From contig OZ024742.1 in the NCBI GenBank assembly GCA_964016885.1, positions 252,402,001 to 252,466,000 of the forward strand: a stretch of DNA of 64,000 nucleotides. The letters run 5' to 3'. The translations under genes and the position numbers were made by a program. Positions 9,801 to 60,640 of this stretch are shown piece after piece. The stretch comes from Eledone cirrhosa. Lineage: Eukaryota. Each line of letters begins with the position of its first letter. The first letter of the stretch is position 1. The notes beneath the pieces were generated by a model, which did not search any database, was not told where the DNA came from, and saw only the letters and a list, made by a program, of their open reading frames with translations.

Positions 9801-10235
9801 GATCCCGTTCCAGTCGCCCACTAACACTAAAGAGCGGGACGTTCCAAGAAAGGTCTCCAGACGCCGGAAGAAATCAGGCCGCCCTGCTCCTGTCGGGGCA
9901 TAGACGGCCACTAACCTGAAAGCTTGCCCGTCTCCGCTGGTCACGTCCAGCACCACCAACTTACCTTCTGGGTCCAGGAAGATGGCCCGTATGGCAAGAT
10001 CCAAACCTCTCCGAAAAAGCACAGCAACTCCTCCCCCCGATCCCGGACGGCTGGGAGATGCGTACACATCGTAGCCGCCGAAGATCGGTGCGAAAGCCTG
10101 TGCTTCGGAGATTCTGGTCTCGCTGATGGCCACTACATCTATGTTTAGTGACCTGAGGTCGTTGAGCAGGTGGCCCTGCTTCCATGACGACCCCAAGCCA
10201 CGCGCATTTATGCTGCCTATTCTGAGTGAGGTCAT
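6816..10235 (-). pseudogene. ORF2 (APE endonuclease + reverse transcriptase) of Tx1 copy A, one in-frame stop
   Basis: ORFs 9648-10235 (SINARGL, ISET, GDWN) and 6816-9548 are in the same frame. TGA at 9648-9650 corresponds to TCA (Ser) in copy B. Confidence 0.92.
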
Positions 10236-10269
10236 GTTGAAAAGGAGTGGAAAAGATGGGAAAGACCAC

Positions 10270-12295: not shown

Positions 12296-12799
12296 TTTTT
12301 TTCAAAGAAATTTTTGGATAATAATAAAAGTTAAAATTTTGGGCACAAGGCCCCAATCTTTTTGGGTGTCCTTTTCGGAAAACAATGTATGTGTGCTTAT
12401 AAACAGTTTACAATAAAATTTTCCATAAATGGCAATTTTTAAACAAACGGAAATAACAAACCTTTGCGGAGCTCACGATAATACGATTTCCTACGTAGGT
12501 CGCCAATAATAATAATAATAATAATAATATTCAATTCATTTGAAAGCAAACAGCCTCATAATGCTATGACCATCATCATCTTTTGTTCTAGCAGTGGCAA
12601 AGGGAAACTATTGACAATGTTGTTTCAGGGTTACTGCCCTTCGTCAAGATTGTGTATCCTTTCCTGCTACACACTAGAACTCTTGAAAATATAGGATATT
12701 TTCTGAAGTATACACCAGCTGATTAGACTTATTTGCATACCGACCGATTTTACAGCTGGCTTTGCCAAAAATTGAAAACAAAAAACTCACAAATACATT

Positions 12800-19009: not shown

Positions 19010-19300
19010 TTTGAGGTACACTCAAAAGGTTCTGAGACTTTCACCAGAGAGACATATATTTAACTCAGATCAACACAAAACTCTAGTCTCCCCCCCCCAA
19101 AGTAGGATCCTCCAACTTCAATGCTCTTGTTGTAGCACTCCAGCCACTTGTGGAAGGCTCCTTTGTAGTCCTCCAAAGTGAAGGTATCCAGTGTGCTTGT
19201 CACAGCCTCTGTCATCCCCTCCACATCCTCAAAGCAGATACCCCTGAGCTTCTCCTTCAGCTTTGGGAACATCCAGAAATCACATGGCGCTAAGTCTGGG
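19010..19300 (-). mobile_element. mariner transposase C-terminal remnant with 3' TIR-like end
   Basis: PDLAPCDFWMFPKLKEKLRG...GGSYF. Confidence 0.85.
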
Positions 19301-19421
19301 TGTGTGTGTCTGTGGAATGCTCAGACACTTTCATGTAAATTTCATGAGCAGGTTATTCTGAGATTTAAACAACTGGAACACTCATCCTTGAAACAGGTGG
19401 AGACCAAACAATGTTTGTGGT

Positions 19422-22400
19422 GTCTGCCTGTATGTGTGTGTGTCTATGTATATATGTCTGCCTATATGTGTGTGTGCCTATGTGTATATGTCTATATGTA
19501 TGTGTGTGTGCCTATGTATATATGTCTGCCTGTATGTGTGTGTGTCTATGTATATATGTCTGCCTGTATGTGTGTGTGTCTATGTATATATGTCTGCCTG
19601 TATGTGTGTGTGCCTATGTATATATGTCTGCCTGTATGTGTGTGTGCCTATGTATATATGTCTGCCTGTATGTGTGTGTGCCTATGTATATATGTCTGCC
19701 TATATGTGTGTGTGTCTATGTATATATGTCTGCCTGTATGTGTGTGTGCCTATGTATATATGTCTGCCTGTATGTGTGTGTGCCTATGTATATATGTCTG
19801 CCTGTATGTGTGTGTGTCTATGTATATATGTTTGCCTGTATGTGTGTGTGCCTATGTATATATGTCTGCCTGTATGTGTGTGTGCCTATGTATATATGTC
19901 TGCCTATATGTGTGTGTGTCTATGTATATATGTCTGCCTGTATGTGTGTGTGTCTATGTATATATGTCTGCCTGTATGTGTGTGTGTCTATGTATATATG
20001 TTTGCCTATATGTGTGTGTGCCTATGTATATATGTCTGCCTATATGTGTGTGTGCCTATGTGTATATGTCTACATGTATGTGTGTGTGCCTATGTATATA
20101 TGTCTGCCTGTATGTGTGTGTGCCTATGTATATATGTCTGCCTGTATGTGTGTGTGTCTATGTATATATGTCTGCCTATATGTGTGTGTGCCTATGTATA
20201 TATGTCTGCCTGTATGTGTGTGTGTCTATGTATATATGTCTGCCTGTATGTGTGTGTGTCTATGTATATATGTCTGCCTGTATGTGTGTGTGCCTATGTA
20301 TATATGTCTGCCTGTATGTGTGTGTGTCTATGTATATATGTCTGCCTGTATGTGTGTGTGTCTATGTATATATGTCTGCCTGTATGTGTGTGTGCCTATG
20401 TATATATGTCTGCCTGTATGTGTGTGTGTCTATGTATATATGTCTGCCTGTATGTGTGTGTGTCTATGTATATATGTCTGCCTGTATGTGTGTGTGTCTA
20501 TGTATATATGTCTGCCTGTATGTGTGTGTGCCTATGTATATATGTCTGCCTGTATGTGTGTGTGTCTATGTATATATGTCTGCCTGTATGTGTGTGTGTC
20601 TATGTATATATGTCTGCCTGTATGTGTGTGTGCCTATGTATATATGTCTGCCTGTATGTGTGTGTGTCTATGTATATATGTCTGCCTGTATGTGTGTGTG
20701 TCTATGTATATATGTCTGCCTGTATGTGTGTGTGTCTATGTATATATGTCTGCCTGTATGTGTGTGTGCCTATGTATATATGTCTGCCTGTATGTGTGTG
20801 TGCCTATGTATATATGTCTGCCTGTATGTGTGTGTGCCTATGTATATATGTCTGCCTGTATGTGTGTGTGTCTATGTATATATGTCTGCCTGTATGTGTG
20901 TGTGCCTATGTATATATCTCTGCCTGTATGTGTGTGTGCCTATGTATATATGTCTGCCTGTATGTGTGTGTGCCTATGTATATATGTCTGCCTATATGTG
21001 TGTGTGTCTATGTATATATGTCTGCCTGTATGTGTGTGTGTCTATGTATATATGTCTGCCTGTATGTGTGTGTGCCTATGTATATATGTCTGCCTGTATG
21101 TGTGTGTGCCTATGTATATATGTCTGCCTGTATGTGTGTGTGTCTATGTATATATGTCTGCCTGTATGTGTGTGTGTCTATGTATATATGTCTGCCTGTA
21201 TGTGTGTGTGCCTATGTATATATGTCTGCCTGTATGTGTGTGTGCCTATGTATATATGTCTGCCTGTATGTGTGTGTGCCTATGTATATATGTCTGCCTG
21301 TATGTGTGTGTGTCTATGTATATATGTCTGCCTATATGTGTGTGTGCCTATGTATATATGTCTGCATGTATGTGTGTGTGTCTATGTATATATGTCTGCC
21401 TATATGTGTGTGTGCCTATGTATATATGTCTGCCTGTATGTGTGTGTGCCTATGTATATATGTCTGCCTATATGTGTGTGTGTCTATGTGTATATGTCTA
21501 CATGCATGTGTGTGTGCCTATGTATATATGTCTGCCTGTATGTGTGTGTGCCTATGTATATATGTCTGCCTGTATGTGTGTGTGCCTATGTATATATGTC
21601 TGCCTATATGTGTGTGTGCCTATGTATATATGTCTGCCTATATGTGTGTGTGCCTATGTATATATGTCTGCCTGTATGTGTGTGTGCCTATGTGTATATG
21701 TCTATATGTATGTGTGTGTGCCTATGTATATATGTCTGCCTGTATGTGTGTGTGCCTATGTATATATGTCTGCCTATATGTGTGTGTGCCTATGTATATA
21801 TGTCTGCCTGTATGTGTGTGTGCCTATGTGTATATGTCTATATGTATGTGTGTGTGCCTATGTATATATGTCTGCCTGTATGTGTGTGTGTCTATGTATA
21901 TATGTCTGCCTATATGTGTGTGTGCCTATGTATATATGTCTGCCTATATGTGTGTGTGCCTATGTATATATGTCTGCCTGTATGTGTGTGTGTCTATGTA
22001 TATATGTCTGCCTATATGTGTGTGTGTCTATGTATATATGTCTGCCTATATGTGTATGTGTCTATGTATATATGTCTGCCTGTATGTGTGTGTGCCTATG
22101 TATATATGTCTGCCTGTATGTGTGTGTGTCTATGTATATATGTCTGCCTGCATGTGTGTGTGCCTATGTATATATGTCTGCCTATATGTGTGTGTGCCTA
22201 TGTATATATGTCTGCCTATATGTGTGTGTGCCTATGTATATATGTCTGCCTATATGTGTGTATGTCTATGTATATATGTCTGCCTGTATGTGTGTGTGCC
22301 TATGTATATATGTCTGCCTATATGTGTGTGTGCCTATGTATATATGTCTGCCTGTATGTGTGTGTGCCTATGTATATATGTCTGCCTATATGTGTGTGTG

Positions 22401-24036
22401 TCTATGTATATATGTCTACATGTATGTGTGCGTGTCTATGTGTATATGTCTACATGTATGTGTGCGTGTCTATGTATATATGTCTACATGTATGTGTGCG
22501 TGTCTATGTGTATATGTCTACATGCATGTGTGCGTGTCTATGTATATATGTCTGCCTGTATGTGTGTGTGCCTATGTATATATGTCTGCCTGTATGTGTG
22601 CGTGTCTATGTATATATGTCTGCCTGTATGTGTGCGTGTCTATGTGTATATGTCTACATGTATGTGTGCGTGTCTATGTATATATGTCTGCCTGTATGTG
22701 TGCGTGTCTATGTATATATGTCTGCCTGTATGTGTGTGTGCCTATGTATATATGTCTACATGTATGTCTGCGTGTCTATGTATATATGTCTACATGTATG
22801 TGTGTGTGCCTATGTATATATGTCTGCCTGTATGTGTGCGTGTCTATGTATATATGTCTGCCTGTATGTGTGTGTGCCTATGTATATATGTCTATATGTA
22901 TGTCTGCGTGTCTATGTGTATATGTCTGCCTGTATGTGTGCGTGTCTATGTGTATATGTCTACATGTATGTGTGCGTGTCTATGTGTATATGTCTACATG
23001 TATGTGTGCGTGTCTATGTGTATATGTCTACATGTATGTGTGCGTGTCTATGTGTATATGTCTACATGTATGTGTGCGTGTCTATGTATATATGTCTGCC
23101 TGTATGTGTGCGTGTCTATGTGTATATGTCTACATGTATGTGTGCGTGTCTATGTGTATATGTCTACATGTATGTGTGCGTGTCTATGTATATATGTCTG
23201 CCTGTATGTGTGCGTGTCTATGTGTATATGTCTACATGTATGTGTGCGTGTCTATGTGTATATGTCTACATGTATGTGTCTGTGCCTATGTATATATGTC
23301 TACATGTATGTGTGCGTGTCTATGTGTATATGTTTACATGTATGTGTGCGTGTCTATGTATATATGTCTACATGTATGTGTGCGTGTCTATGTGTATATG
23401 TCTACATGTATGTGTGCGTGTCTATGTGTATATGTCTACATGTATGTGTGCGTGTCTATGTATATATGTCTACATGTATGTGTGCGTGTCTATGTGTATA
23501 TGTCTACATGTATGTGTGCGTATCTATGTGTATATGTCTACATGTATGTGTGCGTGTCTATGTATATATGTCTACATGTATGTGTGCGTGTCTATGTGTA
23601 TATGTCTACATGTATGTGTGCGTGTCTATGTGTATATGTCTACATGTATGTGTGCGTGTCTATGTGTATATGTCTGCCTGTATGTGTGCGTGTCTATGTG
23701 TATATGTCTACATGTATGTGTGCGTGTCTATGTGTATATGTCTACATGTATGTGTGCGTGTCTATGTGTATATGTCTGCCTGTATGTGTGCGTGTCTATG
23801 TGTATATGTCTACATGTATGTGTGCGTGTCTATGTGTATATGTCTACATGTATGTGTGCGTGTCTATGTGTATATGTCTGCCTGTATGTGTGCGTGTCTA
23901 TGTGTATATGTCTACATGTATGTGTGCGTGTCTATGTGTATATGTCTACATGTATGTGTGCGTGTCTATGTGTATATGTCTGCCTGTATGTGTGCGTGTC
24001 TATGTGTATATGTCTACATGTATGTGTGCGTGTCTA
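19422..24036. repeat. 34-bp satellite (~135 units)
   Basis: Unit TGTCTGCCTGTATGTGTGTGTGCCTATGTATATA shifts to TGTCTACATGTATGTGTGCGTGTCTATGTGTATA at the 3' end. Confidence 0.97.
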
Positions 24037-25723
24037 AACATTTGTGTATCTAAACAATTTCAAATCAACTAAATAGTAGTAACAATTATCTTTAACAGTG
24101 CTCTGGCTGAAATCTTTCATGAGAGCAGGAAAAAATGCTGGATCTATATCGTTGACTTAAAGCCAAATAATGTGGTATTATGTTCATCTCCAGCTTATGT
24201 CTTCATACAACTGTATGTGTAAGATTGTGCATGTCTGTGTGTGTGTGCATGAAAGATAGATAGAGAGGAGTGAGAGGCAGAGTGAGAGATGGAGAGAGAG
24301 AGACTGAAAGTGAGAGAGAAAGTGTTTGATTGTATTTCTCATAGTATTATTTTGTATAGGTGGTGTCATTCATTATCTTCTAATTCATTATCAGCAATGT
24401 ACATACCTTCACTTTCTATTTTCGTGTGTTTGTGTGTAGGTGTGTAGGTGGATGGCAGTGTTTTTGTAGAATCTGTTACTAATTCTACTTGTGTAAGTAC
24501 TCAGACCAGATCTCTGCTCTGAATAGTTACATGAAATATTGATGTGCTGCTTTTTACTGCATCTCCCATATTTAGTGCTATGATCCACTTATCTATAGAA
24601 ATGAATTGCGATGTCACTGGTGCCAAGCTGTATCGGCCTTTGCCTTTCCTTTGGACAACATCATTGGCATGGAGAGTGGATTGTTGGTCTTCCATAAAAG
24701 CCCCTTGCCCAGGCTTATGCATCGTTGGGAAGCTTTCTATGTGAAAAATCCATGTTTATTCATAACTGAAGGGTTTTTTTTTTACTCTTTTATCTATACA
24801 GAAGGTGCATGACTTAGTGGTTAGGGAATTGGATTAGCAATTGTGAGGTTGTGTTCAATTCCCAGACCAAGACATTTTATTTTCCATTGCTTTTTCTGCC
24901 AGGAGTTGTGAGTGGTAGATAGTATCAGCAATGGAAAAATTAATGGAAACATTGTTTCCTTGGTCTGATTTGATGAGTTTCACCATACTTGGTAAGTGAG
25001 TGAGGTTAGGGAACTTGTCAGTCATATCATCCATATATATATATTTAAATATAATATGTTTCAGCTGCTTTTTCCACGATTTAAACTGTGATCAACTAAA
25101 TTGTTAAAATGCTGGACAGACAATTTTATTCAAATTTTCCTGTGGGTATTTTATTTTGTTTTTGGACAAGATATTTTATTCTATATTGCTTCATTTCAGT
25201 GAAGAAAAGGTCAGTAGAGCTGATCATCCATTAATATATATAATTCAAACAGCAGAATAAATATTTTGCCATGAGGAAGAAAGACCATTGCTAGTTTCAT
25301 TGGATTCTCCTGCATTTATTATATAACACCGATACAGATGTTTGCTCAGAAAAACCAAAGTTAACAGAAGCTAATATTAACTAGAGATGATTTACTGCAG
25401 TTTCCCTCGCAACTTTAGTTTCTCTTCTTCAAGTCTATATTGGTCATTTATTTCTAACTAGTTTGCTATGTGTCCTTCAGTGGGGATACTTACCAAGAAA
25501 CTAAGTCATTCTAGGGAATTCTTTTTGTTATAGGTGTTGATTTTGTTTAGCCACAGATCAAGCATTCCAGCTATAACCAATCAATTTTTTTATAGTCATT
25601 GTATAACTCGAACTACACAATCCAGTGCATCCTTCCATTTTTTAAGACAGTATGCTAAAATTCTGAGGTATAGAATGTATTTACATAAATGTTCAGCTTA
25701 TATATATCATATATATATATATT

Positions 25724-29397: not shown

Positions 29398-29653
29398 TGA
29401 TACAATAATAATAATAATAATAATTATTATTATTATTATTATTATTAGCGACCTACGTAGTAAATCGTATCATCGTGAGCTCCGCAAAGGTTTGTTATTT
29501 CTGTTTGTTAAAAATTGTCATTTATGGAAAATTTTATTGTTAACTGTTTATAAGCGCACATACATTGTTTTCCGAAAAGGACACCCAAGAAGATTGGGGC
29601 CTTGTGCCCAAAATTTAAACTTTTATTATTATCAAAAAATTTCTTTGAAAAAT

Positions 29654-31612
29654 ATGGCTAATTCACCTCTGCAACAAGCAGCTGAAAGCCTTCCTCACAA
29701 ATTAACACCTCACACCGACACCACCATTGTAAATGTTACTACGTTTGCCAACACAAAAAAAAATATAAGCAGTAGCAATATTTTAAATTTGTCTCAGGCA
29801 GACATTCATTTCCCGCCATTACCAATGACTGCAGGTGTTAAAGCCTCCACTACCACCACCCCACCACCACCGCGACAACAGAAACAAAAGAAGAAAAAAA
29901 TAAATTAACTCGTGATGTCGAAATGAAATCAAGCAAAATGGACTCTTCCCCACCAAAGACGACTGACGTCACCACCACCACAACTGAAACTAAAATTAAT
30001 ATTAACGATAGCAACAACAACAACAATGACATTATAAAACCGACCCTCAGTTTCGCCAGAGTAGCAAAACAATTCGAAGCTTGTACGGTAACTCAGGAGG
30101 ATTTAGAAAATGCCAAACAAATGGTAAAGAAAGATGGGTACAGGGTCAGCCTCCCCCCCCCCCACCTAATAAAATGGAGCATCGGCGCCTATGCACCGTG
30201 TCGTATAGAACAATAAATGTAAAATCGCGCCGAGTGGAACGGGCATCCGAGTCCCAAATCCAAAAAGCTTTGGGACGTGTGTGGGCAAGAAAAACCCACA
30301 TCAGACGTGGGCAAAAGTATGGAACCGTGGACGTGTTCTTTGAAACACCAGAGGAGGCTAGAGAACACTCCATGGCCCCATTAAAAAGTGACGACTTCAC
30401 ACTCGTCCCAAGCTATTGTGGCCAGAGACTCGTAAAGATCAGGGTGACGCACGTTCCACCGGTCATCGAAATTCCCTGGCTAATAGCGGCCGTCCTCGCC
30501 GGCATCGAAGCCAACACGAAAATAATAGCAGTAGCAAAAGAAAAGCAGGAAAACTGGTCCGGATCTGGGATGGAGCTCCTGATCCAAGCGGACCAAAAAA
30601 GCATTGAGGAGATCCCAGAGGTAATAGACCTCACTGACGGCAGCCACCTCACGGTAATTGTCGAGGGCAGAAGACCTAGGTGTGTCGTTTGTGGTGAAGG
30701 AACCCACCTAAGGGCTTTCTGCCCTCAGGCTAAAAGGTTGAGGCCACCTCTCCTACCCACCCCAGTGACACAACCATCAACACCACCAGTAGCAGAGATG
30801 GCAGCAACAACTGTAGCAGCAACAACAGAAGCAACTATAACAGCAACAACCCCAGCAAAACCAACACCACTACCACCACCAGCAAAACCAACACCACCAC
30901 CACCCAACGCTTCAGAACTAGCACCAGCGCCTACACCATCCACCACACCACAACCAAAACTAACGGCTGTGGAGGATTTTCCACTCCCCGGCCTATCACA
31001 ACTGGAGACAGATTGTGACGACGAGGAGTGGGAAACGATATCCGGAAAAAAAAAAGAAACCAAGAAAGAGAAAATTCTCTTCCTTCCCCCTCCAAAAACA
31101 AAATACAGAGGGAAACAAATAAACTAAGAAACAAAAAAGTTAGGACAGATATGCCACCATCCACACCAGCATCACAAACCCCATCAACCCAAACACCAAC
31201 ACCATCACCATCATTAACTCCAACACCACCATCACCTACACCACAAAAGTCACCAAAATGCGAAACAGAAACAAACCCACAACAAACGCAAACAAAACAA
31301 AACAACCAAAACGATACACACTACACAGCATTAAATTTGAACAACAAGCAATTATTACACTACATCCAACACAACACCAGCATCACAGAAAAAGAATACA
31401 CAACAACCCCAAAATTCACACCACCTCCACACATACAAATCACTCGCATCACACAGAAAACGCACATGACACTAAAACAAAAATTCCCCAAAGACATCGG
31501 AGACTTCCGACAAGCACTCTCCAGGAGGATTTATAAGGACATCCTTCCTGAGGAGGCCACACGCAGTGAAAAGGATGGAAAAACCGTCCTTCCCCTACGA
31601 GAAGTAAGGTAA
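29654..31612 (+). pseudogene. ORF1 region of Tx1 copy B (frameshifted)
   Basis: Segments MANSPL.., MKSSKM.., MEHRRL..(CCHC) and ..LREVR. The A-run near 31046-31055 has 10 A versus 11 in copy A, giving a frameshift. Confidence 0.8.
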
Positions 31613-31646
31613 GTGGTCTTTCCCATCTTTTCCACTCCTTTTCAAC

Positions 31647-34600
31647 ATGACCTCACTCAGAATAGGCAGCATAAATGCGCGTGGCTTGGGGTCGTCATGG
31701 AAGCAGGGCCACCTGCTCAACGACCTCAGGTCACTAAACATAGATGTAGTGGCCATCAGCGAGACCAGAATCTCCGAAGCACAGGCTTTCGCACCGATCT
31801 TCGGCGGCTACGATGTGTACGCATCTCCCAGCCGTCCGGGATCGGGGGGAGGAGTTGCTGTGCTTTTTCGGAGAGGTTTGGATCTTGCCATACGGGCCAT
31901 CTTCCTGGACCCAGAAGGTAAGTTGGTGGTGCTGGACGTGACCAGCGGAGACGGGCAAGCTTTCAGGTTAGTGGCCATCTATGCCCCGACAGGAGCAGGG
32001 CGGCCTGATTTCTTCCGGCGTCTGGAGACCTTTCTTGGAACGTCCCGCTCTTTAGTGTTAGTGGGCGACTGGAACGGGATCTTAGATGCACGCTGGGATT
32101 GTGTGGGATTGGTGGATAGGGAAGGAGGGTGCAAGAGTCTCACCAACCTGCTCAGACGTTTTGAACTGTCTGACAGGTACCGAATGGATTTCCCGAATGT
32201 ACCAATGTGGACTTGGACAAATCGCATAGGATCATCCAGATCATATCTAGATAGAGTATTTTGTAGGGAAATAGATAGGTCTAGCATAGGCTGTCCACAA
32301 TTCAAGATAGTCAGCTACACGGACCACAAATTCGTGATCTGTGTGCTTGACTTAGATAGGCTTCATAGACGAGGACCCGGCTACTGGAAGCTAAACGCGT
32401 CCTTACCAGCGCGCAAGGCCTACAGAGACCGGATTAGCGAACTAGTTAAGCGGGCGTTGACGGGGGCCATCGTCAACAACAAGTGGTGGTTTGCTCTGAA
32501 AAGAGCAATTAGAATAGAGTTCATTAGGTTTAGTAAGACTTTAGCAATAGAGAAAAATAGAGCAGAGGGAGAATTAGTTAGAAAATTAGATGAGGCGCTT
32601 AGCAAAGGCATCGCGACCGACGTACTTGCGGCGAAATTGGCCCTTGACCAATTCTTCAATGCAAAGCACGAAGGCTGCGTTGTCAGAGCTAGGGTGCGTG
32701 CTCTCAGACACGAGGGGACGAAAGCCGTTCAATGGGCCCGAGTGGCGGAGGCGCGTCGTGGCAACAAAGCCACGATCCGGTCTTTGGTGGACCACGACGG
32801 GCGCATGCTACTCGATCCCGGGCAAATGTGTGAAGCTTTTCAGCGACACTTCGCTCAACTGTTCGGGGGCAGTGGCGGGCCGGATCGAGGGATGGACTTT
32901 AGTGTCTACCTCGACGGACTGCCGCGGCTTTCGGCCACTGAGGCGGAGTGTTGCGAAAAGCCGATAACAACCGCTGAAGTACGGGATGCAATGACTAGTT
33001 GCACAAGGGGTAAATCGCCTGGTTTGGATGGTCTGCCCTATGAACTTTACGTACAAATGCCAAACTTGTTCGGAGGCCTCTTGGCGGACGTCTACTGCAA
33101 CTGGCAACAGAACGGGAGAATTCCCAGCTCTGTGAGCCGAGGAGCGGTGGCGCTGCTGAGAAAGGATCCGAACAAGGGGGATAACATAGATAATTTTAGG
33201 CCCATAACTCTGCTAAACACAGAGTTCAAGATTTTGGCCAAGGTGCTAGCAAAGAGGTTGGCGCTTGTCGTTGGTCGTCTGGTGGGAGAGGCACAGACAT
33301 GCGCCATTCCCGACAGATCCATCCACGACAACCTCCACCTCATGCGATACATCGTAGAGAGGGTAGCTAGGGAACCTGGCACGGGTGGGTCTTTGATCAA
33401 TTTAGATCAGTCGAAAGCCTTCGATAGGGTCGACCATCGTTACCTAGCGGCAGTCCTGAGGGCGGCTGGCTTTGGGCCCGTCTTCAGAGGCTGGATCGCT
33501 GCCATGCACAGCGACATCTGCTCTGTAGTGAGAGTGAACGGTCATCTTTCGGAACCGTTCAACATCATGCGCTCGGTCCGCCAAGGATGTCCCCTCTCGT
33601 CCCTATTGTACGTATTGACTCTCGAGCCATTACTGCACAAACTGGAGACGTTGAGGGGGGTCCCGCGCGAACTAGGATGCGGAAGATCCGTGTCAGCATA
33701 TGCCGACGATGTCACCGTAGTGGTGTCGAACGCCAAACACATCGAGGCGATCGGCACTACACTAAGAGAATACGAAGCGGTGACAGGAGCAATGATCAAC
33801 CAGGAAAAGTCAGTGGGCCTGCAGCTCGGCACCTGGAGAGGCAGGTCCATGCCGTCCAACAGCGTCGTCGGGCGCTGGACGGACGGACCGGTTAAATTGC
33901 TAGGGGTCTGGTTCGGTCCAGACCTCCAGACGGACAAAAACTGGGACGAGGTGACGAGCAGGGTGGCTTCTCTCACCCAGAAATGGGCGGAGAGGAAGCT
34001 ATCCCTGAAAGGTCGAGCGGAGGTGGCGAACGCGTACATCGCATCCGTCATCTACTACCGCCTGACCGTCGTACCTTGTCCTAAGCCCCGCCTGACTGCG
34101 CTGGAGCGTTTGCTCTTTCGCTTCTTGTGGAAGGGACGCGCTCCGATGGTCAGGCGGTCCATCTGCTGTCAACACCCGCTACGTGGAGGGCTGGGCATGC
34201 CGTGGCTGATGATGCGCAGACACGCGCTCAGGCTACGACATCTCCACCTCTTCCTCGACGGTGATCAGGTGTGGTCGCCGTTTGCGAGACACGTTTTTCC
34301 CCAGCTCGTCTCCTTGACGGAGCTGCAGTCCTGGGTCAAGCGAAGACCGAGAGGTAGCGCTTGGAGACTGGAATGTCTTCAGGCGCTCACAGCCCTCGAC
34401 CAATCGGGCAATGTGATCGGTGGAAACTCCACCTTGGCGTTCTATAGGGGATTAGTGGAGGGGAAGAGCGACGACGTACTTGGAGAAACTCTAGGCGTCG
34501 ACGAAAATCAACTAGCCAATCTCTTCGGAAGGACTTTCGGGCCGGGGCCTATGGACAACTTCCAGAAATCCCTGGCCTGGCAGTGCTACTGAGGAGCTTT

Positions 34601-35066
34601 GCCAGTTCGGGATAAACTCTACAGGCATGGAGGTGCCGTCAGCCGGGCATGTCCGAGATGCGCGCAAGGCGACGAAACCGTCCTGCACGCACTCGTCCAG
34701 TGTCCGAGCATTGCTGACTTGTGGGTTTATGTCGAACACCTGCTGTCACGTGTAGGACCGATCCAGCTATCAGCTGAGTCCATCGTGAGGATTGCCCCGC
34801 CCCCTTCCTTTAGCCGGGAAGGGCAGGCAGTTTTTATCTGTCTGGTGGCCATGGCGAAAGAGATAGTTTGGTGGACACGTTTGAAAGGGCTGAAGACGAG
34901 CACTTACCTCTTCGGTGATGCCCTGATTAACTTTTTCAAATTTCATCTGAAAAGGAAAATCAGGGTAGAGAGGGAAGTGCTCTCTTCCCAGCATTTTGTT
35001 GAAAGATGGGTGAGAGAAGCAAGTATGGCCCGAATGAATGGGCCTTCTCTGAGTATGTGTCTGTAA
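31647..35066 (+). pseudogene. ORF2 (APE + RT + C-terminal zinc motif) of Tx1 copy B, one in-frame stop
   Basis: 981-aa ORF ends at TGA 34590-34592 (CGA in copy A) and continues in frame to 35066. Confidence 0.92.
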
Positions 35067-35310
35067 ATTAAAGGTGGAAAACTGGGAGAGGGCACTTGCC
35101 CTGGTGGTCAGGGCCACTGTGGTCTTTTAATGGGCTTTCTCCACAAATGTCCCTCGGAAGTCTCCCCCCTATTGGGGAATTTTTCTTTGTTATTTTATTT
35201 CATCCTCTGTTTTTTTTTACACGCAGAAATGCCCATTTGTACCGTCCTGTATTGTCCTGTACTGTCCTTAATGTCTACTTTATGTAAACCCTTGTGGTTA
35301 ATAAAGAAAA

Positions 35311-35371
<61 letters not shown>

Positions 35372-45208: not shown

Positions 45209-45773
45209 CAAGAAATGGGGTGTTCAAATGAAAAAAATAAAACTTAATACATATATTAGTTTGTTAATTTGTTTTGAAGTTGAAGACTCAGCATTGAATA
45301 AATGATTGCGTATGCATGTCTAGTTTTAAACTTTTCAACTAAATTAGATGAAGCAGCATTTATATGTTCCTAAAGATAAACTAAGTTTAAAACTGGCAAT
45401 ATATTTAATTTGATGACATTTTTACAATTTTTTGTTTTTATAACAATATTTTATTTTTAGTTTAAATATAAGATTTTTAAGATTTAAACAAAACCATAAA
45501 AAATATTTAATATGAGGGTTAAATCAGTCAGAATTATTAAATTAGTGAAATTTACTCTGGCTCAAAAAGATCTTTTGGGGATTGTTGTGCTGTACTTAGC
45601 AACATTTAATATCAGTTTATATACATAGATATCAACATAAAATCTATAAAATAATATCTATAATATCTATAAAATCTTTTTCTAGTTGTAAATATATATA
45701 TTCTCAACAGCAATAATTCGTATAAAAGTGTAGATAAAACATATAAGGATATATATATAATTTATTTCAGTAT

Positions 45774-46037
45774 TTCAGTCTTTTGCATTGGGCTGCAAAA
45801 GAGGGCCGCCTCAATATAGTGGATATGCTAATTGCACGGGGAGCACGTATCAATGCTACAAACATGGGTGATGATACTGCTTTACATATGGCTTGTAGTC
45901 ACGGACAAAAAGAAATCGTTCTGAGGTTGATGCAAAACAAAACCAATATAAATGCAATAAATAAACATGGAAACACTCCCTTACATTATGCTTGTTTCTG
46001 GGGCTTTGCTGATATATCAGAGGATCTTGTTAATAAA
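45774..46037 (+). pseudogene. ILK: Integrin-linked kinase ankyrin-repeat fragment, probably a processed pseudogene
   Basis: [57 protein letters not shown] matches the ILK N-terminus as I recall it ([25 protein letters not shown]). Homology stops abruptly at (TA)n. Confidence 0.85.
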
Positions 46038-46139
<102 letters not shown>

Positions 46140-48454: not shown

Positions 48455-49076
48455 AATATTCGAAAATACCACCTTTTCGCTCAAATTTCCGCCTTTTCAG
48501 CTCTAGCTCCCACTTTTTTCAACCGATTTCGTTCAAATTCGAAACTTCGGCTCCACCTCACACATAAATCAATTTATTTGGTTCAACTTTTATACTACGA
48601 TAGAACCTATCATTAGCTCCCACATTTTTCAACCGATTTCGTTCAAATTCGAAACTTCGGCTCCACCTCACACATAAATCAATTTATTTGGTTCAACTTT
48701 TATACTACGATAGAACCTATCATTAGCTCCCACATTTTTCAACCGATTTCGTTCAAATTCGAAACTTCGGCTCCACCTCACACATAAATCAATTTATTTG
48801 GTTCAACTTTTATACTACGATAGAACCTACCATTGCACATCTTATAGTAGCTTTACACTTTGCATTTTTTGTTCAGGGACGGCGTGGAAGCCGTTTAACT
48901 CTTCAAAATACGATTTTTCCACCTCCCACATATTCTATACGATTTCACTCAACATTTCGCCATTTGCTACACCTTACGACCGATTTTCAAGAAACTCGCA
49001 GTCACTAAGATCAACACCTTTTCATCAAAGCAGATATTATTTTACCTACCCAGGCAACGCTGGGTACTGCTGCTAG
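48455..49076 (+). mobile_element. Non-autonomous Helitron-like element with internal 110-bp x3 repeat
   Basis: Hairpin TACCCAGGCAACGCTGGGTA at 49047-49066, then CTAG|T at 49073-49076. Tandem units start at 48504, 48614 and 48724. Confidence 0.65.
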
Positions 49077-49078
49077 TA

Positions 49079-49630: not shown

Positions 49631-49633
<3 letters not shown>

Positions 49634-49900
49634 AGTCACATGGCTTAGTGGTTAGATCATTGGCCTTGCAATCGAAAGGTTGTGAGTTCAATTCTCAGAC
49701 CGAGTGATGTGTTGTTTGCTTGAGCAAGACATTTTATTTCACATTGCTCCAGTTTACTGAGCTCTAGAAATGAGATGATAGGACTGGGGCCCCTATCATT
49801 CCACTGCAAAGTGGTCGTGGAGGTGCCACGGCAAAAAAGCACCCACCACTCACTGTAAATGAGGTTGGTGTTAGGAATGGCATCCAGCTGTAGAAATCAA
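49631..49900 (+). mobile_element. SINE family 2 copy, 3'-truncated
   Basis: Matches 4144-~4413, then switches to the hammerhead-containing repeat. Confidence 0.85.
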
Positions 49901-49912
49901 GAATGAACACTT

Positions 49913-49964
49913 CTGAGTTGTACTGATGAAGGGTAATCCTCAGAAACATTAGTGTCTACAGTTC
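49913..49964 (+). ncRNA. Type I hammerhead ribozyme (retrozyme copy 1)
   Basis: GAGTTGTA-CTGATGA-AGGGTAATCCTCA-GAAA-CATTAGTG-TC-TACAGTTC. Stem I pairs over 8 bp (two G-U). Predicted GUC cleavage after 49956. Confidence 0.8.
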
Positions 49965-50353
49965 TGTTCGTATACCAACACAAGAGCAAGAATGAAGTGT
50001 TCATTCTTCTGACATGGCTATAAAATCGAGGCTAGTTTTTCATAATTGCAAACGAATTGAATGTTATTATTTATATTCAAAAAACTCAGATTACATTTAT
50101 TGTATTCAGCCATGTAGAGCGAAACTTTCTTTTTTATTTGAATTTGGCAAAGCCGGCCATTTATCGCTCGTATACAGGAAACTGGGTGGCCAGTCTGCGG
50201 ATATGCACATCTGGCTGATCAATGCATCTGCTAATATGCAGATCTGACTGATCGGCCAGTCTGCTAATATGCAAATCAGGCCGATCAGTCAATGTGTATT
50301 TTTGAAAAGAGCATATATTTTCACTAGCTCTGACAGTTTGGCAGGTGAACAGT

Positions 50354-50403
50354 GAGCTGTACTGATGAAGGGTGATACCCAGAAACATTAGTGTCTGAAG
50401 TTC
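50354..50403 (+). ncRNA. Type I hammerhead ribozyme (retrozyme copy 2)
   Basis: GAGCTGTA-CTGATGA-AGGGTGATACCCA-GAAA-CATTAGTG-TC. Perfect stem II; the 3' strand of stem I is partly decayed. Confidence 0.75.
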
Positions 50404-50558
50404 TGTTCGTATGCCAACGCAAAAGCAAGAATGAAGTGTTCATTCTACTGACATGGCTATAAAATTGAGGCTTGCTTGCATAATTGCAAACGAATCGAAT
50501 GTTATTATTAATATTCGAAAAACTCAGATTACATTTATATATATATATATATATATAC

Positions 50559-50652: not shown

Positions 50653-50698
<46 letters not shown>

Positions 50699-52078
50699 TA
50701 GCCGTTGCTCGCACCAACCGGAGGTATATGGTCTTTAAAGCGATGAAATGCCTATGATAGTTGGAAGATCATTGATGAAGGACAAACTTTTTTCATATGT
50801 AACCCATTTGCAACTCCGCAGCGCCCTTATTATCATATTTACACATATTTTTTCCTCTGCTGCTACACCGTCTTTTTCGTTCTATGTATCTTTACCCTTT
50901 CTAGCAGTCTCTCTCTCTGTTAGCCTCTTCCTCACCTCGCCCTTCACTCACTCATTCTCTGTCACTACCTCTCCTCCTCCTCCTCTTTCTTCCCGTTTGA
51001 CCTGTGAGTAACTCTTTTCTCTCACATTCTCGGCCAAGCTGGTCGGAATTTTTTCTCTCTCGTCTACGATTTCACAGAACTTATGTTTACCGAATTCGCA
51101 GACCAGACCCCTTCTTCCTCCCGTTAGACCTGTGTGAAATTCCTTCCTTGCTCACATTTCAACCAGGTTTGATGGTCTTTATTCTCTCGTTCACGATTTC
51201 ACCGAACTTAAATTCATAGAAATCTGGGACTTGTCTCCTTCTTCCTCACTTTCTGTTGCCTCACCATTTTGTTTGTTTACCCTCGCGTCCCCTTTATTTA
51301 CGTGTCCCAACGACTTTTTTTAGCCGTTGCTCGCACCAACCGGAGGTATATGGTCTTTAAAGCGATGAAATGCCTATGATAGTTGGAAGATCATTGATGA
51401 AGGACAAACTTTTTTCATATGTAACCCATTTGCAACTCCGCAGCGCCCTTATTATCATATTTACACATATTTTTTCCTCTGCTGCTACACCGTCTTTTTC
51501 GTTCTATGTATCTTTACCCTTTCTAGCAGTCTCTCTCTCTGTTAGCCTCTTCCTCACCTCGCCCTTCACTCACTCATTCTCTGTCACTACCTCTCCTCCT
51601 CCTCCTCTTTCTTCCCGTTTGACCTGTGAGTAACTCTTTTCTCTCACATTCTCGGCCAAGCTGGTCGGAATTTTTTCTCTCTCGTCTACGATTTCACAGA
51701 ACTTATGTTTACCGAATTCGCAGACCAGACCCCTTCTTCCTCCCGTTAGACCTGTGTGAAATTCCTTCCTTGCTCACATTTCAACCAGGTTTGATGGTCT
51801 TTATTCTCTCGTTCACGATTTCACCGAACTTAAATTCATAGAAATCTGGGACTTGTCTCCTTCTTCCTCACTTTCTGTTGCCTCACCATTTTGTTTGTTT
51901 ACCCTCGCGTCCCCTTTATTTACGTGTCCCAACGACTTTTTTTAGCCGTTGCTCGCACCAACCGGAGGTATATGGTCTTTAAAGCGATGAAATGCCTATG
52001 ATAGTTGGAAGATCACTGATGAAGGACAAACTTGTTTCATATGTAACCCATTTGCAACTCCGCAGCGCCCTTATTATC

Positions 52079-52080
<2 letters not shown>
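50699..52080. repeat. 622-bp tandem repeat, ~2.2 near-identical units flanked by (TA)n
   Basis: Units start at 50699, 51321 and 51943. Confidence 0.95.
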
Positions 52081-52139
<59 letters not shown>

Positions 52140-52715: not shown

Positions 52716-55446
52716 ATTTTTTTAATATAAGGAACTGTTTCTTTGTTTATTCATTATTTTATTAATTTATCTTGACTCTGTTTTCCGTTAATTTTCACCG
52801 AAAATAGTTTTTGAATACATCTCTTTTCATGATATCCGGATTACATTGAGTTCTTCATACGGATTGGACACTACCGTAAATTTTTGGTAGATTTATCTAC
52901 ATACTTTGCTCCTATTTTTATGGGGATATTCTTATTTTTGTGAATGTATATGTATGTGTATGTGTATATATATTTATATATATATATATGTGTATAACTT
53001 TATAACTCCATATATAAATAGTTGAGCTCTTTTTCTTGTCCATTATCCATATCACAATGGAAAAACAATACTTGGGAACTTCTTTAAAGAATATACCATT
53101 ACCTTCTAAGGATGATTTCTTACTTCTTATGATACAAAAAACCAACCAATTTATCAGAAGGGTCAGATGGAGGGCCTACCACTTCGATAAAAAAACAAAA
53201 TGTACTGATAAGAAATATTTATATGATTTCACTACATATAAAAATCCACCACACAACTCTTTACTTGAAAACTTTGAGAAAGACCTTTTTAATTTAATCA
53301 AACACCTCAAATTTAAGAGGTATAAATCTAATTTTCAAAAGGACCTTGATTCTACCCTATTGGATCTAAAAAAATCTAAAAAAATCCATGTCCACTCGGA
53401 CAAAACTGAAAATCTGTATCACATGGATATTGAAAATTACAATGAGTTCATATATAAAGAACTCAGGAAAAATTATAGAAAAACAAACAATGCGTCACTT
53501 ACCAACATCAACAACAAAACACACAGCATAGTGAATAGACTTAATATTGAAGATAGAACTGAACCTTTGGCACTGAAAAGACCACATTTCAACCTGAAAG
53601 ATCATAAATCTAACTTTAACTCTAATCCTTCTATAAGGCTTATATGCCCTTCCAAATCTGATATTGGAATCATTAGTAAAAATTTTTTAGATAGAGTCAT
53701 CCCACAACTAAGAAAACATGTTAATTTACCACTCTGGGAACACACATCCCAGATAATTAACTGGTTTAATAATATTAGAAATAAATCCTCTGCTTCATTT
53801 CTACAATTTGATATAAATAATTATTATTCTTCTATATCACCTATACTCCTGAACAAAGCCTTGATATTTTCTAAAAATAGATCTAACTTAACTTTGGATG
53901 ACATTAATATTATTACACATGCTAGACTAACACTATTGGAATTTAAAAATGAATACTGGACCAGAAACACATATAGTAATCTATTTGATATTACTATGGG
54001 TTCAAGCGATTCCGCCCAAATTACTGATCTTGTGGGCCTCTTTCTTCTTTTTAACATAAATGCTTCCTTTCCCCACCTTAAAGGTGGTTTATATCGTGAC
54101 GACTGTCTTCTCTCCAATAACCTTAGCCTTTCAGAGATAGAAAAAAATAAAAAGCTTATTAGAACTTTCCTTAAAGACTATTATAGTCTAGATATTACAT
54201 TTGAAAACACAAGTAAAGTAGTTAATTTCCTTGATATAATATTAGACTTATCTACGGGTATCTACCAACCTTACCATAAACCTAACCAAAATTTACACTA
54301 CATACACTCACAATCTAATCACCCTAAATCTATCCTTAAAAACCTTGCATATAATATATCACTTAGAATTTCTAACCTTTCGTCTAACCAGGATGTATTT
54401 GATAAAAATGCGACCTTTTATAACGAGCTCTAGCTAGAAGTGGCCACAAAAATAAATTAGTATATATACCTTGTACCAATAACACTACAAACATACAACC
54501 TAATATTACCAACAAACACCAAATGAAACATACACACCTAAATGCCACTCACACTATACCCCAAAATACCAACATAAAACCAAATTTCTCTAACTCTTCT
54601 AATATACAATATAGTAACTCTAAAAAAACTACTCATCCTACAACTCTAATAAATGTTAATAATAAAACTCCTAATAAACAAGCTAAAACACCTAAATCAA
54701 TAAATCTAACTAAAACTGTGTGTGGTGAAGTCATTAACAATAATTCTCTTAATAAACATCAGGATACATCCTATAAAAACAATAAACAACATCGAAACCG
54801 TAATAGACGAGTTACTTGGTATAATGCTCCATTTAATTTACAAATTAAGGATAATATACCTAAAAAATTCTTTAATATCCTAGAGAAGAACTTCCCGCCA
54901 AACCACAAATACCATCAAATTTTAAATAGATCAACGGTTAAATTCTCCTACTCAACAACCAAAAACATAAAACAAAATATAAGTGCCTACAATGCATATA
55001 AATGTAAAAAAAACCATGAGTATACCACCAGTACATCAAACTAACCATAATATCTCCTCAGATACAGGATTCACGAAAAGTTGTAACTGTAGAAACAAGG
55101 CAAACTGCCCATTAAAAGGAAATTGCCTTGTTAATAACATAGTATATAAATGTAAAGTTAACACTAAGGACTCAATTTATTCATATATAGGAGCTACCTC
55201 TAACAAATTTAAGGTAAGATTTAATACCCACAAACATAGTTTTAAAAATGCCGCACTAGCTAATACAACATCTCTAGCTGAAATAATTAATAATTATAGA
55301 AAGAGGAATATAGATTATGAACTGACCTGGAGTGTGCTCAAAAGGGCCACCCCTTATCAAAATAATAGATATGAATGTAGATTATGTTCCCAAGAACTTT
55401 TTGAAATAATGAAATCTAAGGATATCCTATTAAATAAGCGACAGGA

Positions 55447-55725
55447 ATTAATAATTGTTTCTACTTTAGGCACAAGGCCAGCAATTACCCAGTACATTGC
55501 TGGTACTTTATTTTATCGACCCCATCAGGATGAAAGGCAAAGTTAACCTCGGCGGGATTTGAACTCAGACTGTAAAGGGACGTAACTATGGTAGAATTAA
55601 TAATTGTTTCTACTATTGGCACAAGGCCAGAAAATTACCCAGTACATTACTGGTACTTTATTTTATCGACCCCGTAAGGATGAAAGGCAAAGTTAACCTC
55701 GGCGGGATTTGAACTCAGAATGGCA
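55447..55725 (-). mobile_element. Two truncated SINE family 1 copies inserted in the end of the PLE ORF
   Basis: They interrupt ..LLNKRQE|IISCNH at an AATAAT site. Confidence 0.8.
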
Positions 55726-56818
55726 AATAATATCGTGTAATCATTAACTGAGAAAAACCTTTAAATATTATAAACCTAATTAATATACATTTTAGAAATT
55801 AATATATAAACTGTTTTTAATTTAGTTAACCTATAATTAATATTCTACTACTGATGAACTACATAATTTTACTTTCCTTCTTACAACTATCATTTCCTAA
55901 AACTGATACCATTAAGTAAACATATATAATGCTTTAATTTCAGGTTATGACTCTATGTTCCTTGAAATCTCTATATATTTATTATTTCTCACTAATAAAT
56001 TTAACTCCCCCCCCCAATAATTATATGTATGTGTGTGTATGTATATGTGTATGTATATATGTATGTATATATATATGTGTGTGTGTATGTGTGTGTGTGT
56101 GTATGTATATATATATATATATATATTATTTTTATATTCTTTTAATTTCTCCTCATCTTTAACAGCACTCTTCAACTACATCTAACTCTTATTTATCATA
56201 TCTATATGCATTAGTATAATTTTATCAATATAAATATACCCATCAATTAAATTAATTTATATTCTTTTCATAGATGTATTTTTTCACTAACACTCTTATC
56301 GTAAAATTTTAGTCTCCTTAGATATTTGCATTGGCATTACTATTTTATAACAGCAACTGTTTCTATACCTTTTACTGACCTGACCTATTTTCACCCCTAA
56401 AATAACCTTCTCATTCTTCACACTCCATTCAAAACTGAAATCTGCCTTCTTCTACCCCTAAAATAAACTTCAATTACTACTATTTTACCATTTGGCCAAT
56501 TATTAACTTTCTATTGGTTAATTCTAAACCTGTTACTAAACAGACAGACTATATTAGATCTTTGTTGGTTTTATACAATGAACAAATATAATTATTTCTG
56601 AGGTCAGCATACGACCTATTTTCATCCCTAGAATAATCTTTCATTCATAATATTCTTTTCCATCCAAAACTGAAATCTACCTTCCTCTACCCATAAATTA
56701 AGTTCTTTTACTACTATATTACTATCTTGACCTTCACTATCTTTCTATTGGTCAATTCAAAACCTGTTCCCAAACAGACCTATTGTATTAAATCTTTGTT
56801 ATTTTAAATAAACAAATA

Positions 56819-57729: not shown

Positions 57730-57885
57730 TTATATAAATATATATACATTTATATATATATATATACATTTATATAAATATATATACATTTATATATATA
57801 TATATATATTTATAAGGAAAAAAGATGAAATCGAAAATGCAACTGGAGTCTTATTTAAAAAAAAAACATATATTTTTATTTGGTT

Positions 57886-60640
57886 CCTTTACCGGTTTCG
57901 CAGTTCTTCTGCTTTTCAAAAGTAGAGTTGAGATGGAGGGTCTGTGGTTGGTCTTTAAATGTTATTTGTTTTATATGGAAAAAAGTGGCTCGAAACGCCA
58001 GGTTTTTAGAGAAGTAATTTGATTGGTTGGTGAATAAGTATAATAAATTTCGTGCAAGTTCGCGTTCCAAAGTTCTTCAAACAAAGGGCGGGGGGGGGGG
58101 GGGGGCTCAGGTTGTTTTTTCATATATGAGTAAAGTTTGGTTGGTTGATGCAGTCGCGTGAATAAGCACATCAGCTTTCGCGCCAGTTTGTTTGAATTTC
58201 TTTTTACTTTAAAAAAAGTGGCCCACGAAGGCTTTTTTTTTTATAAAATGTAATTTGATTGGTTATAAATGAAATTATGACTGTCACGTGAACAAGTTCA
58301 TTAAATTTCGCGCCCGTATTTGGGAATTTATTTTGTAGCCTTTTAGAGAATTTTATGACAAACAAAAGATAATGGTCAAGAGAAATGGGATGGGGAGAAT
58401 TGTTCTGGTTCAGTGAATATGGCTGGTTCGCTGGGGTGTCAGAATTCAGACTTTCTATTGAAATAAAGAAAGTAGAGATATGTATGTTTATTTGTGTGCT
58501 TGTGTGTGTGTATGTGTGTGTGTATAGGAAGATGATTCTATTAGTAGAAATGGGGGAGGGAGTTGTGTGTGTGTATGGGTGTTATGTGTGTGAGTGTGTG
58601 TGGGAGTATGTTAAGATGGGGAGAATATATATATTTTGTGTGTGTGTATGTGTGTAGGAAAGTGATTCTATTAGTAGAAATGGGGGAGGGAGTTGTGTGT
58701 GTAGGAAAATGATTCCGTTAGTAGAAATATTTTTGAATAAACATATTTTCCTTATTTATTCGTATTTGTTCTGTTGTATTGTCAGCGCAAACGTATGTTA
58801 AGGTTTATTTAGTTCGGGTTTTTATTTTCTACAGTAGAAGGTGTTATGTGTGTGTGTATGTGTCTGTTTGGATGGTTAGCATGTTATGGTGTTGACATAA
58901 TGTATATTAAACTATATTTAATGCTGGTCTATATTTTTGAATAAACATATTTTCCTTATTTATTCGTATTTGTTCTGTTGTATTGTCAGCGCAAAGGAAA
59001 AATGGGAAGACTTGGAATTTGGGTGTCTTATTACTTGCGCATATGTCTAGATGTGCACTTAGTGGTATCTGTCTCGTGGTTGGATCTCGTAATTGTTGGC
59101 CATGAACTGTCATTCTGTTTCTGAGTGTGAGTTTAGTTTGTCCTATATAATCTTCATTGCATCCTTTACATTTAATGGCATAAACTAGATTTTTTGATGA
59201 GCAAGTGAAGTGATTTTTTACAGCAAAATTTTGTTCTGATTGAAATGTATACGTGTTGCCTTCAACGAGGTGAGTGCATGTTCCACAATTAGAGCGACCA
59301 CATTTTTTGACAGTTGGTTGTGGGTTTGTGGTAGGTAATTTGGCATTGGTGTGTAATGTTTTTAGTGATTTCGGTTGTCTTTTGCTTTTGATTATTTTGT
59401 GTGTTTCAAGGGATTTTTTCATTCTTGAGTCTTGTTTCAATAGTGGGATGTTCTTGTGAATAGTGTTGTAAGCTTCCGCATTTTTGGGGTTGTGTGTTGA
59501 GATATATGATAGAATATTGGACGTACCTTGAATTTGTTTCTGTTTTCGTAATTCATCAATGCCTATTGCTTTAGCCCTTTCTATTCCATTATTTATTAGT
59601 AATGGTGGGTACTGTCTTTCGAGTAGAATTTCCTTTAATTCTTGAAGTCTTTTATTTCGCGTTTCATAATTGGAGACAATTGCTAGGTTAAAAGGAATGT
59701 TCGTCTTCGTGTGTTTTGGATGGTTGGAAGTGAATAGCAGGTATTGTTTGGAATCTGTTGGTTTGTAGTGTATGTCAGTTTCAATATTTGTGTCTTTTTT
59801 TAAGATTAAGATGTCCAGAAATGGGAGTTGATCTTGGCAGTATTCCATTGTGAATTGGATGTGGTTATTGATGCCGTTAATTAAATTTTTGAAATCATTC
59901 AGTTGGTCGAGTGTGTGGGACCAAAGAATGAGACAATCATCCAAGTAGCGTTTCCAATTCTCTGATAAATATTTGTGGAAGTTCAATCCGTATTTTGATT
60001 TGGACTGTTCATATATCTGGACTTCTAAGTATGCCATGACTAAGTTGGCATAAGTTGGAGCGGCTTTTATACCCATCCATCGCAGTCCCCGATATTTGCG
60101 TGTAAGTACTGCCATCGAAATCAAAAAAGTTGTTATGTAAGATAAATTATAATCCCTCGGTGATGAAGCTTTTTTTCTATTCTGCCAGGTATCTCATTGG
60201 GATATTTCTCTAGCCAGAATCCTATTGCTTCTAGTCCGTATTGGTGTGGGATCGTTGTGTGGAGATTCACTACATCGAGAGACACAATAATAGTGTCGTT
60301 GTTGACATGTTTGGGGAGGTGGTTTAAGAGGTCCAGATCGTCTCTTACAAGGCTTGGTATGTGTTTGAGAATTGGTTTTAGTAGTATGTCTATAAAGTTG
60401 CTCAGTCTGTGTTTCACATTGTGGGCCCGCTACAATTGGTCTTAATTTAAGGTCTGTGTGTTCACGCAGGCAGAGGTGGATTATTTACAGGCATCGTTAA
60501 TTATTTTACACTTGTGGATATTCGGAAGTCCGTATATATGTGTGTGTGTAGTATTTCCGTAGAAATGATGAATGGGTTGGACGTTTCTGTAAGGATCATC
60601 AAGTTTCTTGAAACCTTTGGTAATGGAATAATTATATTGT
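57886..60640 (-). mobile_element. Penelope-like element (Neptune-like), degenerate
   Basis: ORF 58907-60124: MG..APTYAN, WKRYLDD, LPFLD, linker C-x4-C-x2-C, LVYAIKC..C..YIGQT. Upstream RT piece at 60133-60417. Degenerate hammerhead near 57886-57923. Confidence 0.85.

Follow-up and report, generated by a model that had tools for sequence, protein, structure and literature searches.

The DNA stretch analysed here (64,000 nt of the Eledone cirrhosa genome, referred to as the window) holds two hammerhead-like motifs in direct repeats 439 nt apart, which raises the question of whether this locus is a retrozyme and which machinery placed it there. The original prediction had answered with a retrozyme family mobilised by the Penelope-like elements (PLEs) of the window. 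Our analysis leads, with good confidence, to a related answer: the locus holds one decayed member of a non-coding retroelement family that is dispersed in the genome and bears a predicted type I hammerhead, and a Penelope-like reverse transcriptase (RT)/GIY-YIG endonuclease likely did the copying in trans.

The predicted layout of the locus was largely borne out. The CTGATGA..GAAA cores at 49923-49946 and 50362-50385 both belong to motifs with full hammerhead anatomy, and the GTC triplets of the putative cleavage sites end at 49956 and 50395, exactly 439 nt apart. The direct repeats, put at about 190 bp, measure 187 nt (49914-50100 and 50353-50538) and share 90.4% identity. We numbered the 439-nt unit between the predicted cleavage sites (49957..50395, forward strand, 39% GC, non-coding) from q1, the first base past the predicted cleavage site (window 49957), to q439. 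The main arm of the window copy (49914..50538, forward strand) is 625 nt or 1.4 units long and runs from q397 to q144, i.e. 43 nt ahead of cleavage site 1, one full 439-nt unit and about 143 nt up to a short 3' end. In agreement with the proposed absence of a retroelement ORF, the longest ORF within the unit comprises 78 aa, and there is no RT + GIY-YIG ORF between pseudo-LTRs (pLTRs), as would be found in an autonomous PLE. Three subrepeats of 33 bp, also foreseen, occupy 50188..50287 on the forward strand (starts at 50188, 50221 and 50254; the first is degenerate, the third contains ATGCAAAT at 50269-50276); long hairpins are predicted for this region (z -5.3), which may act as a promoter or as an RNA structure. 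An internal copy of a tail of about 35 nt lies at 50101..50137 (forward strand), between the two 3' end positions of the family as defined by 3' end clusters, and these two positions are likely the two reverse-transcription start sites. On its 3' side the element ends as proposed in a (TA)n tract, which begins at about 50539, extends to 50697 and represents the usual target of the family.

The 5' side turned out to be more complex. It is flanked by a tRNA-headed SINE (49631..49901, forward strand, outside the element) with 92-95% identity to the copies at 4142-4414 and 26099-25871; the head of the latter passed Rfam tRNA, and full copies extend about 75 nt beyond the window SINE. The proposed truncation of this SINE holds as far as the cut at about 49901 is concerned, yet the junction resembles a later microhomology deletion more than the insertion itself. 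Between SINE and main arm we found a 15-nt remnant of an inverted arm that had been overlooked before (49899..49913, reverse strand; reverse complement of 49994-50008), which has AAG in common with the SINE end. On the simplest reading, the SINE end and the outer arm were lost together in a later deletion. The window copy is a real, decayed and probably inactive member of its family and by now probably a poor substrate for double cleavage.

The neighbourhood is rich in other repeats. A 622-bp tandem repeat (50698-52081; 2.2 copies, 99.7% identical) follows directly past the (TA)n tract, and a 110-bp triple tandem at 48504-49077 lies within an element that ends in a short hairpin plus CTAGT, which resembles a non-autonomous Helitron-type 3' end. 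About 4 kb upstream of the element and on the same strand, positions 45747-46046 hold an ankyrin-repeat coding segment, which we take to resemble integrin-linked kinase. Two LINE copies of about 6 kb (6554-12528 and 29423-35329; endonuclease + RT, 97.7% identical) in inverted orientation flank a 4.7-kb simple-sequence array at 19169-24069.

Both hammerhead motifs accommodate a stem I, stems II and III of 3 bp each (the former closed by a 5-nt loop, the latter by a self-complementary one) and the GUC site. Hammerhead 1 (type I; 49915..49964, forward strand; core 49923-49929, GAAA 49943-49946, predicted cut after 49956) is 5'-truncated: it begins at q397, its stem I is missing the distal half, and one pair of its stem II is G-U. 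Hammerhead 2 (type I with an extended, bulged stem I; 50340..50415, forward strand; core 50362-50368, GAAA 50382-50385, predicted cut after 50395) is mismatched (G.A) where the third pair of stem I would form. Stem III had been singled out as very short; it does have 3 bp, but together with its palindromic 4-nt loop this is the normal metazoan type. The base of stem II (10.1-11.1) is A.A throughout the family, as opposed to the usual G-C. The suggested scan with hammerhead models failed to support the motif, as Rfam returned no hammerhead at this locus at the gathering threshold or at E<=10, and the ribozyme call therefore rests on motif and covariation.

Loose matching of the CTGATGA..GAAA core gave 4 hits in the 64-kb window (1.09 expected). 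A loose hammerhead pattern had 4,039 matches, compared with 16 for a control, and revealed at least three other families besides the 439-bp family. In 23 motifs from four families, 5.2 of 6 stem I pairs form when a strand is matched with its own partner, and 2.8 when the partner is taken from another family. Stem III shows C-G throughout, mostly A-U and a near-palindromic loop in the four families, while the base of stem II is A.A, A-U, U.U or U-A depending on the family. The helices thus covary across sister families, indicating that the fold was selected and did not arise by chance. Among copies, divergence of the core amounts to 2-4% compared with 3-7% elsewhere, in samples that were partly picked by an exact core, so that this difference is no evidence of purifying selection on the hammerhead. 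Relative to the minimum-energy fold, the best active fold is less stable by 10.2 and 8.7 kcal/mol in the two window motifs and by 6.2 kcal/mol in the family majority. Slow action is predicted for the lone ribozyme, whose core pairs with the stem III loop in a fold about 6 kcal/mol more stable than the active one, and better performance for a dimer formed through the palindromic stem III.

Searching the 3.0-Gb genome yielded 3,172 candidates; all 40 that were scored are near full length, and the 39 besides the window copy are 92-94% identical. Exact patterns were found 1,669 times (34-mer, q110-143), 1,104 times (34-mer of the core) and 435 times (27-mer, q202-228), which confirms that the monomer is multicopy, and reversed control patterns gave 0 matches. 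The order 1,669 / 1,104 / 435 fits 5' truncation, though the patterns differ in length (34, 34 and 27). Copies deviate by about 2-7% per region from the column majority, with few subfamily sites. The window element is one copy of a dispersed family with more than 1,000 sites. Dimers comprise the window copy, in which hammerhead 1 is incomplete, and 50 exact-pattern copies genome-wide. Tandem arrays, for which a check had been suggested, did not appear: there were no consecutive matches among the 50 exact-pattern dimers and hence no trimer, in an assembly that may have collapsed arrays. No publication describing a retrozyme from octopus or other cephalopods came up in our literature searches; Repbase/Dfam may already contain the family. 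The other families revealed by the loose hammerhead pattern, at least three in number (L324-L343, contig C1), also have extended type I hammerheads and end in (TA)n, some of them with inverted or direct repeats; they gave no BLAST match to the 439-nt unit and are probably further retrozyme-type families.

How the copies entered the genome was read from their insertion footprints. Five samples, drawn largely from the top-listed places of contigs C1-C2, gave 270 element loci, of which 224 unique loci remained after 46 duplicates had been dropped. Both arm orientations are present in 156 of the 224 loci, and adjacent arms form 141 head-to-head pairs but 0 tail-to-tail pairs. The 3' ends of the arms fall into two clusters, a short one of 166 arms at q135-152, peaking at q144 and q149, and a tailed one of 142 arms at q166-185, peaking at q181; another 119 ends lie elsewhere, many of them broken by nested insertions. 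These two fixed ends are about 35 nt apart, which is the spacing of a PLE 'tail'. Leaving out 73 of the 141 head-to-head pairs, in which one end is decayed or holds a nested insertion, 65 of the 68 scorable pairs combine a short with a tailed end, 2 are short+short and 1 is tail+tail (P 2e-16 vs 50:50). The 5' truncation of the arms is variable. (TA)3 was detected within 20 nt of 258 of the 308 family 3' ends, in a genome in which (TA)n is common at large. Of 465 arms, 193 extend through a single cleavage site and 62 through two; no arm passes three, and the longest measures 835 nt, i.e. not more than 1.9 units per arm. The element ends, about 144 and 181 nt beyond the cleavage site, do not coincide with it. 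The retrozyme layout initially proposed thus stands as regards a standalone, non-coding, multicopy hammerhead element, but not in the position of the element ends.

A SINE-like element is repeatedly inserted at unit q110, an AT-rich palindrome (L007, L014, L043, L044 and others); it accounts for 13 of 56 free 5' ends, a few of which were sampled twice. The same element is also present in a PLE ORF at window positions 55445-55726, a nested target preference.

Each of the insertion footprints of the arms has a counterpart in PLEs. Reported PLE insertion features include 5' truncation, partial tandems, an inverted 5' copy and an optional tail of 30-40 bp, and some clades show a (TA)n bias (PMC8557442, PMC3846280); the tail is described as the spacing of two RT start sites (PMC11167929). 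Coding GIY-YIG PLEs of the same genome likewise end in (TA)n with tails of about 35 nt. The proposed mobilisation by the PLEs of the window is therefore supported in so far as the footprints point to PLE-class machinery; against it, the element has no sequence in common with the window's four coding PLEs.

By analogy with the Anolis Poseidon enzyme (PMC11167929), a PLE enzyme would nick both strands of a (TA)n tract. One cDNA would begin at each of two internal RNA sites, some 144-149 and 177-181 nt beyond the predicted cut, and the two cDNAs would extend to variable lengths before joining at their far ends. For the lizard PLE, the published in vitro data describe a protein that nicks and extends both strands at AT-rich DNA, two internal RNA start sites that bound the tail, and hammerhead cleavage that is dispensable (PMC11167929). 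Since arms run through the cleavage site, most templates would have been uncleaved, i.e. longer than one unit, or religated. A minority of templates were likely cut by the hammerhead, because 5' ends pile up at the cut site.

This pile-up was seen in arms that had been sampled by their 3' end and reach the site, excluding those that end at the SINE insertion site: 13 of 76 truncated 5' ends fall at -2..+6 of the cut site, compared with 2.6 expected (P 2e-6). For the upstream cut site, a second sample gave a weaker enrichment (5 of 19 5' ends). In a third, small set of partner arms the pile-up did not recur (1 of 16 vs 1.1 expected). The stronger hairpin of the subrepeats caused no excess of 5' ends (10 of 48 vs 10.1 expected). 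Enrichment also extends over +7..+20, the whole 3' strand of stem I (12 of 88 vs 4.6 expected), so that RT stalling at stem I is a possible cause. Judged by the positions of the ends, the pile-up at the cut site is an indirect hint of hammerhead cleavage. Among Xenopus retrozyme dimers, a 2026 preprint reports that only 1 of 9 was cleaved (bioRxiv 10.64898/2026.07.22.740005).

The original prediction corresponds to the classical retrozyme cycle, in which two-hammerhead copies release the 439-nt monomer, and the circle ligated from it is the main template for longer-than-unit reverse transcription. This route is compatible with PLE enzymes, and we treat it as a tentative alternative. In its favour, 255 of the 465 arms (62 of them at two places) pass through the cleavage junction without a seam, though the genome showed no array from which long transcripts could come. 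Retrozymes of coral, mussel and axolotl are described to form circles (PMC7229834). As a circle, the 439-nt unit is predicted to be highly self-paired (-129.8 kcal/mol, z -5.7), and the family-majority unit strongly so, with a blocked core (-163 kcal/mol, z -9.8). A second pile-up of 5' ends at q161-190 (19 of 62), about one round from the tail start, could stem from a collision with the start site on a circle. It is, however, set by position and not by arm length, and it follows a U-rich tract, so that release of the RT on this tract or a transcription start would also explain it. Only about 50 copies fit the exact two-hammerhead pattern, and the Anolis PLE needed no hammerhead cleavage in vitro (PMC11167929).

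The repeats within single arms bear on the number of templates. A single circle implies identical repeats at birth, whereas the repeats within an arm disagree in 19-24% of cases: at four subfamily sites we counted 15 of 78, 19 of 79, 16 of 82 and 18 of 82 discordant pairs, with 38-58% for random pairs, and these include 12 T/G swaps at a non-CpG site. We estimate that about a third of the within-arm repeat pairs came from two templates. This discordance exceeds what one circle plus later decay would leave, so template switching or heterogeneous linear precursors must contribute. A more specific version, in which the 439-nt circle serves as direct template for a dimeric Penelope enzyme that primes twice on opposite target strands at the two fixed sites, passes the ligated junction and stalls at the occupied start, appears doubtful to us.

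The preferred reading, copying in trans of a non-coding element, further depends on its independence from a coding PLE. We consider it improbable that the copies are 5'-truncated ends, i.e. pLTR debris, of a rare, unsampled coding PLE. This explanation draws on the fact that every footprint is a PLE footprint, and on Xenopus, where 24 of 57 retrozyme families were reported to be homologous to known TEs at their termini, nearly all of them PLEs (2026 preprint). Long arms, on the other hand, re-enter the 439-nt unit and not a UTR or ORF, as the 62 double crossings demonstrate. A survey of 242 arms in 137 loci (some sampled twice) provided 56 free 5' ends, and none of them continues into shared PLE sequence or any other common continuation apart from the nested SINE at q110 and unrelated flanking repeats, which is in line with the original expectation of a standalone element. 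Same-strand PLE fragments within 1.2 kb were detected at only 12 of the 224 loci, at inconsistent distances and from different families. Our partial survey of coding PLEs covered 80 loci out of more than 10,000 GIY-YIG candidates (30 of the window's GIY-YIG family, 30 with Pfam GIY-YIG and 20 of a fourth family); these loci had no sequence in common with the unit, barring one separate insertion in opposite orientation, and neither they nor the window's four coding PLEs have ends in common with it. A faint likeness by eye between the tail of the element and that of the family at window 58910-60193 was not counted. In addition, hammerheads of the coding families seen are of the minimal and not of the extended type, several with the U3-A8 core described previously (PMC4209133). 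As no arm runs into a coding PLE, we regard the element as standalone and non-autonomous, of the metazoan retrozyme kind.

Two loci in which an arm abuts a PLE ORF (L212/L213) were considered as a family link and rejected: at one of them the arm is joined head-to-head to an old degenerate PLE, at the other the element has inserted into a PLE ORF and splits it, and neither links the families. The coding PLE with the RT/GIY-YIG ORF at 58910-60193 carries a minimal hammerhead at its end (57860-57930, reverse strand), in which the core is of the U3-A8 variant and the loop is the palindrome CCGG, and two other GIY-YIG families bear similar motifs. Its many copies with identical scores and open frames of 775 aa suggest that this PLE family is likely young. 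Near-identical duplicates of two window PLE loci are located on contig C3, about 364 kb from the window (L062 and L215); one of the pair adjoins an assembly gap, and they represent a segmental duplication or an uncollapsed haplotype.

A DNA-level origin as a MITE-like or satellite repeat, with palindromes from fold-back repair and a chance or dead hammerhead, is strongly disfavoured. TA flanks and inverted ends are MITE-like, copies have diverged by about 4-7%, and the decay of their hammerheads roughly keeps pace with that of the remaining sequence. Against this origin, the arms are asymmetric with variable inner ends and outer ends that differ by a fixed 35 nt, exact matches follow a 5' truncation gradient (1,669 / 1,104 / 435), no arrays were found and the helices covary between hammerhead families.

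Among known systems, the metazoan non-LTR retrozymes come closest; they were defined by Cervera and de la Pena (2020, PMC7229834), who named PLEs as candidate helpers, and their units measure 350-390 bp in mussel, 220-240 bp in coral and 330/350 bp in axolotl. The 439-bp family, with 39% GC and more than 1,100 exact cores, falls into the retrozyme class of low-GC, multicopy elements of 150-450 bp. According to the features given in that study, it shares with metazoan retrozymes a non-coding unit of a few hundred bp with a GC content below 45% and thousands of motifs, a type I hammerhead whose stem I is extended and whose stem III is short and palindromic, and the coexistence with PLEs that bear minimal hammerheads. 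Its unusual stem II base has a precedent in axolotl HHR_Amex2, which has U.U at this position and whose weak cleavage as a monomer improves in the dimer (PMC7229834). In contrast to coral retrozymes, described from dimers to 62-mers, the 439-bp family comprises not more than 1.9 units with no array found; larger arrays are common in the described metazoan families but not obligatory. It further differs by its dispersed twin-arm insertions with PLE tails.

Vertebrate retrozymes have been described as non-autonomous PLE derivatives that also occur as dispersed monomers (Li, Clavereau, Pollet, bioRxiv 10.64898/2026.07.22.740005), which implies the same mobilising class. The evidence presented in that preprint is co-occurrence and pLTR homology, while for the 439-bp family it is the footprint, with no homologous coding PLE found. 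With EN+ PLEs (Penelope/Poseidon, Neptune, Naiad), the family has in common 5' truncation, partial tandems, a head-to-head arm, a 30-40-bp tail and the (TA)n bias reported for them (PMC8557442, PMC3846280, PMC11167929); in contrast to these, it lacks an RT/GIY-YIG ORF, and its hammerhead is of the extended canonical type and not minimal. Non-autonomous PLEs of the Chlamydomonas MRC1 type resemble their autonomous partner at the 3' end, whereas no such partner was found for the 439-bp family among the 80 coding loci surveyed.

Taken together, the class of element is already known, and the 439-bp family is an additional retrozyme-type non-autonomous PLE. The mover of animal retrozymes has so far been argued from co-occurrence and pLTR homology; the 439-bp family bears the mechanistic signature of PLE integration itself, namely tail, twin arms and TA target. 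Its many insertions put a number on a rule, one short with one tailed end (65 of 68 pairs), that agrees with the two start sites and the two-strand extension reported in vitro for the lizard PLE. At 439 nt, the unit is also a compact substrate with which to learn if hammerhead cleavage or circularisation is of importance to PLE retrotransposition. A circle-templated PLE cycle was proposed in 2014 and 2020 and is not demonstrated in the literature compared here; if the circle-template reading were true, the thousands of insertions in this octopus genome would be a fossil read-out of circle-templated PLE retrotransposition.
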